This document shows positions 3,543-13,149 of a DNA stretch of 64,000 bases, in pieces. Origin of the DNA: a virus; IMG/VR virus record IMGVR_UViG_3300005253_000015, positions 1 to 64,000 of that record, one strand, 5' to 3'. Both the position numbers and the translations under genes were made by a program. Position 1 is the first letter of the stretch. Each line of letters starts with the position of its first letter. The notes below the pieces were generated by a model. That model was not told where the DNA came from, ran no database searches, and worked only from the letters and a program-made list of their open reading frames with translations.

Positions 3543-3549
3543 AAAAAAA
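3543..3549 (-). terminator. oligo-T terminator directly after the guide array
   Basis: T7 run on the minus strand 2 nt after the last (degenerate) edge repeat. Confidence 0.45.
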
Positions 3550-3551
3550 TT

Positions 3552-4672
3552 TTACTCGCTACATAGATTTGGTTTTCTTATACAAAATGACTCGTTTATC
3601 TCAATTGGTTTACTCTTTGTTGATGACTCGCTACCTTATTTTGGTTTTCTTATTACCCATGACTCGCTGTTCACCTATGGTTTTCTCGGAAATAATGACT
3701 CGCTCAATCCAATTGGTTTTCTCAACTTTTTTGACTCGTTAATCTAGCTTGGTTTTCTTATACGAAATGACTCGCTTAAGTCTTGTGGTTTCCTTCACTA
3801 AGATGACTCGCTATTTGTCATTGGTTTTCTTTTCTCTCATGACTCGCTAAAAACCGTTGGTTTTCTTAGATATTTTGACTCGCTACTCCGTAGTGGTTTT
3901 CTTCCTTCTTATGACTCGCATTATTTTAATGGTTTTCTATTGTTTAATGACTCGCTATCTTCTAATGGTTTTCCTAAGTCTTTTGACTCGCTTTCTTCAG
4001 ATGGGTTTCTTTTTTATAATAACTCGCTTCAATTTCTTGGTTTTCTAATATTTAGTGACTCGTTTAATTCATATGGTTTTCTATTCTTATATGACTCGCT
4101 ACTCCGTAGTGGTTTTCTTCTCTTATATGACTCGCTTATAGATTGTGGTTTTCTACAGATTGTTGACTCGCTATTTGTCATTGGTTTTCTTTTATTCTTT
4201 GACTCGCTATCTTCTAATGGTTTTCTGATTTTACTTGACTCGCTAATCTGATATGGATTTCTGATTTTACTTGACTCGCTAATCTGATATGGATTTCTTA
4301 TATTTAATGACTCGCTTATTTTTTATGTTTTTCTAAAATCATGTGACTCGCTACCTTATTTTGGTTTTCTTATTACCCATGACTCGCTGTTCACCTATGG
4401 GTTTCTCGGAAATAATGACTCGCTTAATGAATTTAGTTTTCTTATACTTCTTGACTCGCTAACTTATATTGGTTTTCTGTATTTATTTGACTCGCTTAGT
4501 ATTTATGGTTTTCTTGTTTAACATAACTCGCTATTGTTCAATGGTTTTCTTTAATATAATGACTCGTTCGGTAAAATTGGTTTTCTGATATCTAGTGACT
4601 CGCTAATCTCCAATGGGTTTCTTAAGTCTTTTGACTCGCTAAGGCGAAATGGTTTACTTGTTCTCTATGGCT
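3552..4672 (-). repeat. TIGR-type tandem interspaced guide RNA array: 31 units of 36 nt (AGTCA-N9-AGAAAACCA-N9-AGCG on the minus strand)
   Basis: On +, TGACTCGCT (with variants) starts at 3552+36k for k=0..30 with no indels. It alternates with TGGTTTTCT, and the two are separated by variable 9-nt spacers. The array abuts a Nop-domain gene. Confidence 0.93.
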
Positions 4673-5568
4673 TTTTCTTTTGGTACTAAAGTACCTTCCA
4701 TTTTAAGTGCTTTTCTCCATGTAATAATATTATCATGTAGTAAAACACCTTCAACATAATTCTTCTTAGCAGGTAAACCCATTATCTCTCTTGCACAATG
4801 CCAATAGTGGTCTAAAAAGATTTTCCTCATCTTTCTAAGTGCTCTATTATGAGCATGACCTTTACTTAATTTCGTGTCAGTTTTTTTATATGGTTTTCCG
4901 TATACCTCAAAAAGTGTATTAACATTATATTCTCTGTTTAACTGTTTTTCCTTTTCTGTATCATAAATCTGTCTATAATATCCTTTATTATGTATCAATA
5001 ATCCTTTAGATACCATCCATACTAAAGATTTCAATCTGGGATTATAATTAATAGTTTCTCCTTTTTTACGTTTTTGAGCTACTCCATTCACCACTGATTG
5101 ACCAGCATAAGCCCATAACTTACTAACTGTATCTGGTACGACATCACAATATCCTATTTCTTTTACTAGTTTGGCACTGATAACCTTATCTATACCTCGT
5201 ATCTTATCAAGAAAATCAATATATATAGCTTCATCTTTAACCAACTTCCCTAAACTCTTTTTAAACTCACGTTCAAGCGTCTTTACAGTAGGAATAGTTA
5301 CATCAAAAAATTTACTAATATAAGCCCCCTCTTCTGGTGTCACCCTACCTTCTTCTATTAGTTTATTTGCTAAAGGAAGTAACTTAGCATCAGCATATTT
5401 GGTATCAAAGGTTTTGCTCTCCTTTTTCTCTTCGACTTCATCGAAATCAATTCCCATATCAATCTTTCTGAGAATATCACGAATCTGATTCATAAAAATC
5501 TTTCGAACATTCTGGATAGATTCATATTCTACAGCATGTAATCTCAGAAGCACACGTTTTAAATTCAT
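4654..5568 (-). CDS. tasA: TIGR-associated Nop-domain RNA-guided DNA-binding protein without a nuclease domain (TasA type; IS110/Nop5-related)
   Basis: N-terminal coiled coil, then RGIDKVISAKL..EIG...TVSKLWAYAG...YNPRLKS...YYRQIYD..K...HAHNRALRKMRKIFL..YW. No RuvC/DEDD or HNH domain. The guide array starts at its 3' end. Confidence 0.85.
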   Translation of the reverse strand: MNLKRVLLRLHAVEYESIQNVRKIFMNQIRDILRKIDMGIDFDEVEEKKESKTFDTKYADAKLLPLANKLIEEGRVTPEEGAYISKFFDVTIPTVKTLEREFKKSLGKLVKDEAIYIDFLDKIRGIDKVISAKLVKEIGYCDVVPDTVSKLWAYAGQSVVNGVAQKRKKGETINYNPRLKSLVWMVSKGLLIHNKGYYRQIYDTEKEKQLNREYNVNTLFEVYGKPYKKTDTKLSKGHAHNRALRKMRKIFLDHYWHCAREIMGLPAKKNYVEGVLLHDNIITWRKALKMEGTLVPKEKAIENK

Positions 5569-6422
5569 AAAAGCCCAGCCTCTCTAAGTTGCTTAATTGT
5601 TGGAAAAGACGAATCTTTTTTCAGCATTACATTTTCTATTATATATGTAATTTGATTAGCTATTTCATCCCAGTATCCAAGCTTTGTAGCAATTCCTTTA
5701 ACTTCATTGTATAATGTTTCATAATGATATTTTGATGTCTTTACAGATGCTAATTCTTCCTTTAAATCAATTATTTCTTGTCGAAGGTCTAACTTTGTTT
5801 TTACTTTTTGCTTTGTTACCTTACCTTTTTTTTTAGGAGTTGTTAAATGTTTGATGTAGAGTCTATTGATTGACTTCTCTTTCCTCCCTCTCTCTAATTG
5901 GTCTAAGGCTTTCCTAACCTCTGGATTCGATTCAGCCTCTTTTTTAAGCTCTTTAAATTGATTTAATGCTTTTAATGTAGTATGTATTTCTCTAGCAGTC
6001 CTCTTAGTCTGTGCCAATTCCTGTATTTTACGTAAATTAACATCTTCTTGAACAGCAATACCATGCTCTTTTCTTATCCACTCTTCCATCTCAATACCAA
6101 TCTCTAATTTTGTACCGAGTGCCATATGTCTTCGGTCAAAATTACATAAGCTAATAATATCAACTAATGCTTCAGTACTACTTATATCTAAGTCTAAAAA
6201 ATATGGCTCTATTTCTGCCATTAGACATAGTATTAAACGAATTCGTCCATCTATAATCTCTTGAGTTGATTGGAGTCTTAGAATAGGATAATACTGTCCA
6301 CTCTTCTTCATTCTCTCTGCCATTGAAAGTAGTTCTCTTTCTGGTGGTATAGGGAAAAGTATACATAATGGATGAAACTTATGTTCTTCCATCTGTTTTG
6401 TTATATCTTTAAACACTTTCAT
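5565..6422 (-). CDS. ParB/Srx-like N-terminal domain protein with coiled-coil tail, translationally coupled to tasA
   Basis: FHPLCILFP...G...PI....IIDGRIRL..C....IEP.F...CN..RRH motif; ATGA overlap with tasA at 5565-5568. Confidence 0.75.
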   Translation of the reverse strand: MKVFKDITKQMEEHKFHPLCILFPIPPERELLSMAERMKKSGQYYPILRLQSTQEIIDGRIRLILCLMAEIEPYFLDLDISSTEALVDIISLCNFDRRHMALGTKLEIGIEMEEWIRKEHGIAVQEDVNLRKIQELAQTKRTAREIHTTLKALNQFKELKKEAESNPEVRKALDQLERGRKEKSINRLYIKHLTTPKKKGKVTKQKVKTKLDLRQEIIDLKEELASVKTSKYHYETLYNEVKGIATKLGYWDEIANQITYIIENVMLKKDSSFPTIKQLREAGLL

Positions 6423-11104: not shown

Positions 11105-13149
11105 TTTTTTTGTTTGATTTTAATTTTTGTTAATATTTAAATTTATCGACAAAATTTATGTCTTGCCATCATACTAAATATGTCGCATTTGTTTATAAAT
11201 ATACGTTATTTATTATATAATTATATTATAGTTATCATAAGTTATAATAAAAAAAAAGTGTTAATTATTTAGGTTTATTATTTTTTTCTAATGTTCTATT
11301 AGCCTTTTTTAGACATCTTGGACAATACATTAATTATATCACCTTTATTTCTACTATTCCGAATACTCTATTACATTCAATACAAAAACATAACCAGAAT
11401 TCGTTGAACTTTTTCCAGTTCTCAACTGGTCTTAAACTCCCTTTACATTCTGGACAATCCATATTAATCTCCTTTGAAGTAATTGCATTGTTCATCCAGC
11501 AAATTAAATGCTTCCCTTACATCACTGATAGTACATTCACAAACTTCATATGGGTGTTCTTTGCCTAATATTTTTACATCTTCGCTTGTATTATAATCAA
11601 GATATGAACCAATTATCTCTTTAGCTCTACTAATTGGCATAGTCATTTTATTTATCACCATATAAATGAAGTAACACAAGATAGAACTCATAATGAGTCT
11701 TATTACTTCTACATAGTTTTGCTGTTAACTTAGTATGATATTTAACAGCCTTCCTCTGTGATTTATGATATTTAATAGCTTTCCATCCTCCATCAGTAAA
11801 GTCAAATCTATTAAGGGCATGATTTACATTTAGAGCTTCAATAAAATATATCGCTGTTTCATTCTCATCAATCTTACCAGTTATATTATGAGTATGAACT
11901 GCTGTAGATAAAAGCAAAACTGGTTTAGTAAATGTTGGTGGGGCATATGCAGAAATCAATCGCATTATATTACCCCCAGCTTAACCAACTTGCCAATAAT
12001 TATATTCTTACCATTTTCAAAGTTTTTCTTCATTATTATTATACCCCATTACTGATTTATTATTTTTTCCTAATGTTTTTACAAGTGTGCAATCATATAT
12101 AGTACCAAATACGCCACCATCCTGCTTACGTATCTCATTCCCAGTAATAATATAACTACCAAGCCCTAAGTCCTTTAGAACATCTGATATTGGGATAATA
12201 TGATAAGAGGACATATAAGGATTAAATATATTATTTCCCTCATCAACTTTAGCTTGTCCCTTAACCATGTCAACATCTAATACATCTACGATAATAAAAG
12301 CATTAGCAAACTGTCCACCACCGAGTAGTATGGCTTTCTTACCTATTTGCTGTTTAGCAAGTTCTAAGTATTCTTTATTTATTTCCATTATATTACCCCC
12401 AAATTGACTAATTTAGCCCATATAACATCCTTACCACCTTTAGACTCTAAAAACTTATCTAAACGTGTCATGACTTCCCAACAGAGATTACATTTGTCAT
12501 GAGCAATTGTATTAACTGGTTTTCCACAAATATGACAATTTGGGATACAATTACGGCAAAAAGAACCCATACCATTAGAAGTTCTTGGTACACCAATTAT
12601 TCCTTGTTTACAATTTCCACATTGCATTATTATAATCCCTCTAAACCATTTCTCTTAATAAAATCCTTAGTCCATTCTTTTAGGTCATTATCATTTTTAA
12701 TACCAAGCACTTCTCTTATAGTAACCTTTTCCCCAGCGTCAATTTTACGTTTAAGTTCTCTATTATCATCAGTTAGACCATCTTCTCCTATGAAATTAAA
12801 ATAGAATCTCGGCATATGCTGAAACATCATAATACCCTTACGATTATCAGACTTTCTAGTACAAGTTATATGGGGTGCTAGGAAGCTATGAACTTTAAAA
12901 TCTTTTTGAAGCTCTTGAGTATCCCATACTTGTCCGTATTTCTTTTCTAATTCTTCTCTATTCATATTCATAATCATCTCCGAATAGGTTTAAGTCCTTA
13001 GCTAAGTCCCAGTATTCTACTTTATCATCATCGTTAAGCTCGTTTATAACGTCTCCCCAATTTACTAATTCACAATACTTTTGTTTAGCTTTTGTTTCTA
13101 AGACCTTTATCCTATCCAACTTTTCTTTTTTATTCATATTATTCACTCC

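Follow-up and report, generated by a model that had tools for sequence, protein, structure and literature searches.

The repeated half-spacers in the guide array described here were probably produced by DNA copying at the 9-nt repeats, with the register of the units preserved, within an ordinary TasA TIGR array. Exact copies of guides occur in the array together with halves that are joined to different partners, which points to DNA-level copying at both of the alternating repeats as the process that reshuffles it. We analysed a window of 64,000 nt comprising the first 64 kb of the virus record IMGVR_UViG_3300005253_000015, a metagenome-derived contig. The record is complete (111,456 bp) and has direct terminal repeats. 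The virus is a probable archaeal virus, and the fact that several close Tas homologues lie on contigs labelled Asgard archaea fits this assignment.

The array and the tas gene

The features of the locus are given in Table 1. On the + strand each of the 31 units consists of the edge repeat TGACTCGCT, a 9-nt half-spacer (h1), the loop repeat TGGTTTTCT and a second 9-nt half-spacer (h2), i.e. 9+9+9+9 nt. The unit spacing is exactly 36 nt throughout 3552-4667 and the two alternating repeats are distinct, as in dual-repeat TIGR-Tas systems. At the repeat columns 26-31 of the 31 units agree, compared to only 11-21 at the spacer columns. Elsewhere in the 111,456-bp genome we found no second array with such repeats.

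Table 1. Positions in the window of the array, the tas gene and the copied tracts.
Feature	Position	Strand	Basis or remark
Dual-repeat TIGR array, 31 units × 36 nt	3552-4667	- (sense)	Strict period, conserved repeat columns
Truncated last edge repeat (3552-3560), then seven-T run (3543-3549)	3543-3560	-	Likely transcript end
tas gene, 304 aa, TasA class	4654-5568	-	phmmer, predicted structure, fold matches
Two-guide block, copy 1, 81 nt	3624-3704		Bounded by complete edge repeats
Two-guide block, copy 2, 81 nt	4344-4424		20 units from copy 1
Edge + shared h1 + loop, 27 nt	3804-3830		Identical to 4164-4190; h2 partners differ at 5/9
Second copy of the 3804 h1 tract	4164-4190		27-nt identity
Edge + shared h1 + loop	3876-3902		Identical to 4092-4118; h2 partners differ at 4/9
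Second copy of the 3876 h1 tract	4092-4118		Identity
Unit 3948	3948-3983		h1 common to 4200, h2 common to 4596
Loop-register tandem duplication, 2.14 copies of a 36-mer	4222-4298		4227-4262 = 4263-4298
Unit 4596	4596-4631		h2 (4623-4631) common to unit 3948

The sense strand of the array was the coding strand of tas in 44 of 44 array-tas pairs from viral loci with the same repeats, and in all 13 parsed loci out of 14 from metagenome relatives. As the sense strand is the minus strand, each guide takes its spacer A from h2 and its spacer B from h1, in both cases as the reverse complement. On this strand the edge repeat reads AGCGAGTCA and the loop repeat AGAAAACCA. The loop repeat is A-rich, terminates in CCA and allows a G-C closing pair; the edge repeat terminates in UCA. 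In a comparison with box C/D motifs both repeats begin with AG and not with UG. Co-orientation with tas and a truncated terminal edge repeat, both typical of TIGR-Tas loci, were also found. The seven-T run behind the truncated edge repeat is, judging from the sequence, likely the end of the array transcript, and the arrangement of truncated last edge repeat and terminator agrees with the description of array ends in PMC12045711. The minus-strand array would be transcribed as one precursor, from which 36-nt guides carrying two 9-nt spacers each are presumably released.

The first unit (4632-4667) overlaps the last codons of tas, so that the first loop repeat contains the tas stop codon (4654-4656). 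This overlap is also kept in the closest relative, L072. The gene 5' of tas (5565-6422, minus strand) encodes a product of 285 aa that has no sequence match in Pfam or the PDB.

In phmmer searches the tas product matched TasR (9mty) with an E-value of 1.2e-28 and TasH with 1.3e-12, over its C-terminal two thirds. The AlphaFold model, computed from 30 sequences, is all-helical with a pLDDT of 86.5. Its top fold matches are the TasR and TasH complexes (E-values of 1e-9 to 1e-7), followed by IS110-type recombinases and Nop5. The protein combines N-terminal helices with a Nop-like C-terminal domain, the guide-binding fold of Tas proteins. Residues 1-110 form long helices in the model without a RuvC-type sheet, and only residues 93-272 align with TasR, whose RuvC part (1-147) has no counterpart. 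Neither the model nor the TasR alignment showed a RuvC or HNH domain and we thus assigned the protein to the nuclease-less TasA class.

Repeats of the TGACTCGCT/TGGTTTTCT type also serve Tas proteins that are only 24-31% identical to that of the window (viral loci L002-L071; also L103, L116, L117 and L138), and the identical two 9-nt repeats were observed in MAGs labelled Woesearchaeota, Thermoplasmatota and CPR bacteria. Conservation is much higher in the repeats than in the Tas protein.

Repeated units and halves

The duplicated unit pair (units 3624/3660, recurring at 4344/4380) and all of the reused halves named in the original prediction were found where it had placed them. Its half pairings are real guide pairings, each taken from the same + strand unit. 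Overall we counted ten identical pairs of halves of the same type against an expectation of about 0.07 (column-preserving shuffles averaged 0.069 and within-half shuffles 0.026). Three was the highest count in the shuffles and none of 20,000 reached ten. No h1 was identical to an h2 and there were no reverse-complement identities among the halves of the array.

The two 81-nt block copies differ by a single mismatch, located in a loop repeat, and both ends of the block coincide with full edge repeats, i.e. it was copied from edge to edge. The 18 units separating the copies are not duplicated, and the block is thus a dispersed copy of two guides rather than the result of a simple tandem event. 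The remaining identities are confined to one half of a unit. Four h1 pairs (3804/4164, 3876/4092, 3948/4200 and 4236/4272) and two h2 pairs (4200/4236 and 3948/4596) are combined with different partners. In a graph of shared halves, which had been proposed as a check, the 29 distinct guides fall into one chain of five (4596, 3948, 4200, 4236 and 4272), two pairs and 20 isolated guides, so that nine guides in total have a half in common with another one. Singletons make up about two thirds of the halves (42 of 62).

The junction of one re-paired guide could be mapped closely. Within the tandem duplication the middle unit, 4236, carries the h1 of unit 4272 and the h2 of unit 4200. The loop repeat in both copies is TGGATTTCT, a private variant (A at 4257 and 4293) that occurs nowhere else in the array; the loop repeat upstream of the duplication has a T at 4221. 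These variants place the junction within the last 5 nt of the loop repeat. The order of units also matches the predicted one, with unit j followed by a chimera (h1 of j+1, h2 of j) and then by unit j+1. The stretch 4227-4298 is what would be expected if the loop repeats of two neighbouring units had undergone an exchange or a slip.

The other four half-only pairs are single 27-nt tracts of repeat, half and repeat with unrelated sequence on either side. Each of these dispersed pairs needs two junctions or several events. Most of the half-only pairs, four of six, are of this dispersed kind, which argues against a single unequal crossover.

We considered whether the halves could have become different after copying, i.e. 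whether whole units were duplicated and one half only then diverged fast. Elsewhere this pattern exists: other arrays contain 12 within-array pairs with one identical half and a partner 1-3 mismatches away (0.9 expected), and orthologous units show point changes between arrays. In the window array, however, the partner halves of the six half-only pairs are as far apart as random pairs (4-6 differences in 9 positions), and the copied halves are exact, as are the repeats that flank them. There is also no excess of close relatives. We observed one same-type pair at one mismatch against 1.2 expected and seven at two mismatches against 9.0 expected. The point or slippage variants that the original prediction saw among the partners are thus in the sequence, for example as the one-base difference between the h2 halves of 3552 and 3732, but they are no more frequent than chance. 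Copies in the window array are either exact or unrelated, and divergence of one half is a highly unlikely origin of the re-paired guides.

An assembler that joined strain variants or mis-threaded the repeats might produce similar patterns, and the record is a metagenome-derived contig. Against this stand the length of the shared tracts (27-81 nt) with their unique flanks, the fact that a path of the form A-R-B-R-C allows a single traversal, and the expectation that assemblers would usually collapse repeats and not create them. The same signatures occurred in over a dozen independent assemblies. Furthermore, arrays with diverged duplicates were identical when recovered from three metagenomes (L006/L037/L038 and L020/L054/L055). 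We therefore regard an assembly artefact as very improbable.

The preferred explanation remains copying in register. Inside the array, the 9-nt repeats could serve as the sites of recombination, replication slippage or template switching without any disturbance to the order of edge, h1, loop and h2. A junction in an edge repeat would copy or delete whole guides, and one in a loop repeat would combine h1 and h2 from two different guides. For classical homologous recombination nine nucleotides are very short. Given a homology of only 9 nt and shared tracts that mostly span one or two halves, a short-tract process appears most likely from its products. The re-paired guides would then be by-products rather than selected variants, and new 9-mers would come from another source.

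Two further characteristics of the array were noticeable. Both halves of unit 4128-4163 contain the 6-nt core AGATTG, and its predicted composite target is a near-palindrome (14 of 17 positions). In addition, the rare edge variant TAACTCGCT precedes the variant TGACTCGTT in the next unit at both of its occurrences (4020-4064 and 4524-4568). These successions are 14 units apart with unrelated spacers in between, and we estimate that such a coincidence arises by chance in ∼1.4% of cases. An old block duplication with later replacement of its spacers may have left this succession.

Related arrays and the source of guides

A pattern scan of viral contigs gave 70 loci with the identical repeat pair, from which 930 units (718 distinct) were parsed. 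For the census of identical runs we used 67 non-redundant arrays with 1693 halves, and for the census of unit pairs 61 non-redundant loci with 6365 within-array pairs. The same scan of genome contigs returned 78 matches against ∼70 expected from their size; these were mostly single chance matches, with a few genuine arrays in archaeal and CPR MAGs.

In the 67 arrays there were 44 identical runs of the same type, compared to three cross-type identities. The runs comprised 31 single halves, nine whole units, three loop-register pairs and one block of four halves. Whole-unit duplicates accounted for 11 of the 6365 pairs, and in 25 pairs one half was identical while the other differed at ≥4 positions (0.36 expected). 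The comparison across related viral contigs, another check that had been proposed, thus found the same re-pairing as in the window. Across the two samples (67 arrays and 61 loci) junctions in edge repeats were about as frequent as junctions in loop repeats.

Individual arrays illustrate both kinds of junction. In L057 (2881-3024) a loop-register and an edge-register tandem duplication are adjacent. In L018 (minus strand) unit 11310-11345 combines the h1 of 11166-11201 with the h2 of the adjacent unit 11130-11165. The first unit of L045 (11855-11890) carries the h1 of a terminal unit, recognisable by a marker edge variant, joined to the loop and h2 of another unit. In L009 that other unit precedes the identical next unit, and the L045 unit marks a junction left by a deletion in loop register.

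The position of the copied halves bears on a further explanation, according to which the same half was taken up repeatedly and independently, or favoured by convergent selection, for different targets that have a 9-bp half-site in common. The pairs 3804/4164, 3876/4092, 3948/4200 and 3948/4596, which lie between unrelated neighbours and lack diagnostic variants in their repeats, would allow it. As TasR also works with its A and B spacers exchanged (PMC12045711), uptake in free orientation would fill either position. Instead the type of position is kept (25 pairs and 44 runs against three cross-type identities), which favours copying in register. If position were free, 25 re-paired pairs against three cross-type identities would have a binomial P of ∼1e-5. 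In the tandem case the private loop variant was copied along with the half, and the virus's own genome contains the halves no more often than expected (233 occurrences compared to 271). Independent uptake is thus quite unlikely. The flanking repeats of the four dispersed pairs carry no informative variants, and for these pairs we infer DNA copying from the preservation of position only.

Some repeat and unit patterns among these arrays were unexpected. In L073 (5942-6467) the edge repeats begin nearly strictly with AGC and AAC by turns, an alternation of two units (72 nt) with an edge identity of 0.08 at lag 1 and 0.67 at lag 2. L013 shows a weaker pattern. The alternation in L073 hints at growth by 72-nt steps followed by complete spacer replacement. 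We rejected a general 72-nt super-period of repeat variants as it was seen in L073 and L013 and not in the other arrays. Moreover, a guide unit with the unusual loop variant CGGGTTGCT is present in L005 (2477-2512, minus strand), L012 (3828-3863), L036, L042 and L045. Two virus groups whose flanks are only ∼74% identical have retained it with no more than one change in its spacers, which suggests either selection on the guide or transfer between viruses.

We then compared whole arrays between relatives. Neither a protein search of viral contigs nor a DNA search of a phage collection returned a close relative of the virus. The relatives L072 and L073 came from the metagenome scan, on contig fragments that hold ∼3 and 14 units, respectively. 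L072 is the closest, with a Tas protein that is 93% identical and flanking DNA that is 86% identical, and it has almost no units in common with the window array. It retains only the first half-spacer, the one within the coding end of tas; the h2 of unit 3876 is present beside an unrelated h1. In L073 (Tas ∼80-81% identical) the 3804 pairing is present with an identical h2 and three mismatches in h1, which indicates that the pairing in 3804 is the older and that in 4164 the derived one.

Arrays whose flanks are 77-86% identical had 2-12 units in common, interspersed with unique units and partly permuted in order (Kendall tau 0.3-1.0). The strongest turnover relative to the flanks was observed for L008 (6480-6884) and L023 (1002-1608, minus strand). 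Their flanks are 99.2% identical up to the first edge repeat, and the 5-6 terminal (tas-distal) units are entirely different. One half was replaced between identical neighbours and a CT run is expanded inside a spacer of L023. No consistent polarity relative to tas was seen among related arrays: L008 and L023 differ at the tas-distal and L010 and L016 at the tas-proximal units, and differences in general are interspersed or located at either end. The arrays change far faster than their flanks, using sequence that shuffling cannot supply.

Targets of the guides were searched in two ways. All 31 guides were compared to the 111-kb genome in both opposite-strand geometries with gaps of 0-2. There was no match at 0-1 mismatches, and the counts at 2-3 mismatches equalled those of wrong-geometry controls. 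The 718 distinct guides had no exact match in 734 kb of related loci plus the genome, and their matches at one mismatch were again at the level of the controls. In large sequence collections chance alone would be expected to produce matches to an 18-mer.

These results bear on the central claim of the original prediction, namely that new guides arise combinatorially by recombination at the loop repeat plus mutation, as a functional generator in place of Cas1-type acquisition. Re-pairing at the loop repeat was borne out at 4222-4298 and recurs in many arrays with the same repeats. The complete genome contains neither a Cas1 nor a reverse transcriptase gene, the two that the search covered, in agreement with the observation that no acquisition gene is visible. 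The literature gives the source of TIGR spacers as unknown, and very different viruses have the same repeats, so that an exchange of halves at co-infection is possible. However, recombination does not make new 9-mers, and near-variants, the mutation part of the claim, are at chance level in the window array. Most of the guide diversity, including the singleton halves, thus needs another source. Relatives with 86-99% identical flanks hold mostly or wholly different units, as in L072 and in L008 and L023, and shuffling cannot therefore be the main source of new guides. Edge junctions are as frequent as expected of an untargeted process, so the loop repeat is not special, and for none of the guides was a target found in the virus's own genome or the related loci. 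New guides need not come from recombination merely because Cas1 is absent, and a generator of this kind is unlikely.

We consider it similarly doubtful that re-pairing is put to use as diversification, with repeat-sharing viruses pooling half-guides, copying building 18-nt specificities from them and selection keeping some. The copying would take place within one genome or between co-infecting genomes. Copying in register at both repeats, with an additional supply of new halves, is the reading we retain.

Comparison with known systems

The window array and the 61 non-redundant loci provide evidence from sequence that arrays with these repeats are remodelled at both of them and that loop junctions yield new combinations of halves. 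Reshuffling leaves unexplained the unique halves and the replacement of whole blocks between near-identical viruses, which call for a separate source of spacers. Where TIGR arrays are used as tools, multi-guide arrays can rearrange.

Spacer loss and duplication through recombination between repeats are known from CRISPR arrays, and the array described here resembles them in the repeat-mediated deletion and duplication of units without acquisition machinery. In contrast to CRISPR arrays, the repeats are 9 nt long and not 23-50 nt, the complete genome has no Cas1, and the differences between relatives are unpolarised, with no preference for a leader end. The inner repeat of a TIGR unit also permits half-guides to be re-paired, which is impossible in CRISPR arrays. 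The combination of Cas1/Cas2 adaptation genes, a single repeat of 23-50 nt and polarised addition of spacers, by which CRISPR-Cas is recognised, does not describe this locus.

In-register duplications and deletions are also seen in minisatellite-type unequal exchange or slippage, and in some relatives the order of the interior units has likewise changed with the terminal ones retained (L012 compared to L036). Unlike minisatellites, the units here encode guide RNAs, the homology is 9 nt and most of the unit sequence is unique. Segmental gene conversion in antigenic variation likewise copies short tracts between conserved flanks, an analogy that applies only to the pooling of half-guides. Donor cassettes, a dedicated enzyme and signs of selection for the products are missing here.

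The closest match are the TIGR-Tas dual-repeat systems described by Faure et al. (Science 2025, PMC12045711) and in a later survey (bioRxiv 10.64898/2026.09.09.750476). With TasA systems the locus shares the alternating 9-nt repeats, the 9-nt spacers, the 36-nt units and the carriage by a virus. As in those systems, the array adjoins a Nop-domain Tas gene in the same orientation, ends in a truncated edge repeat and has an A-rich loop repeat ending in CCA, the form described for TIGR loop repeats in PMC12045711. In TIGR systems each of the two repeats opens with a box D (UG) and closes with a box C (CCA), and the loop repeat is rich in A; here both repeats begin with AG and the edge repeat terminates in UCA. 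The array is also longer than usual (31 units compared to 5-15), and its first unit overlaps the end of tas. Both publications treat the emergence and expansion of TIGR arrays and the gain of spacers as an open question, and our literature search on duplication in TIGR arrays found no description of this reshuffling. The founding paper suggested that the short repeats minimise recombination (PMC12045711), whereas recombination at exactly these repeats is evident in the window array. The locus is a typical dual-repeat TIGR-TasA locus, and what it adds to the known systems is a junction mapped to five bases together with a census of arrays that have the same repeats.
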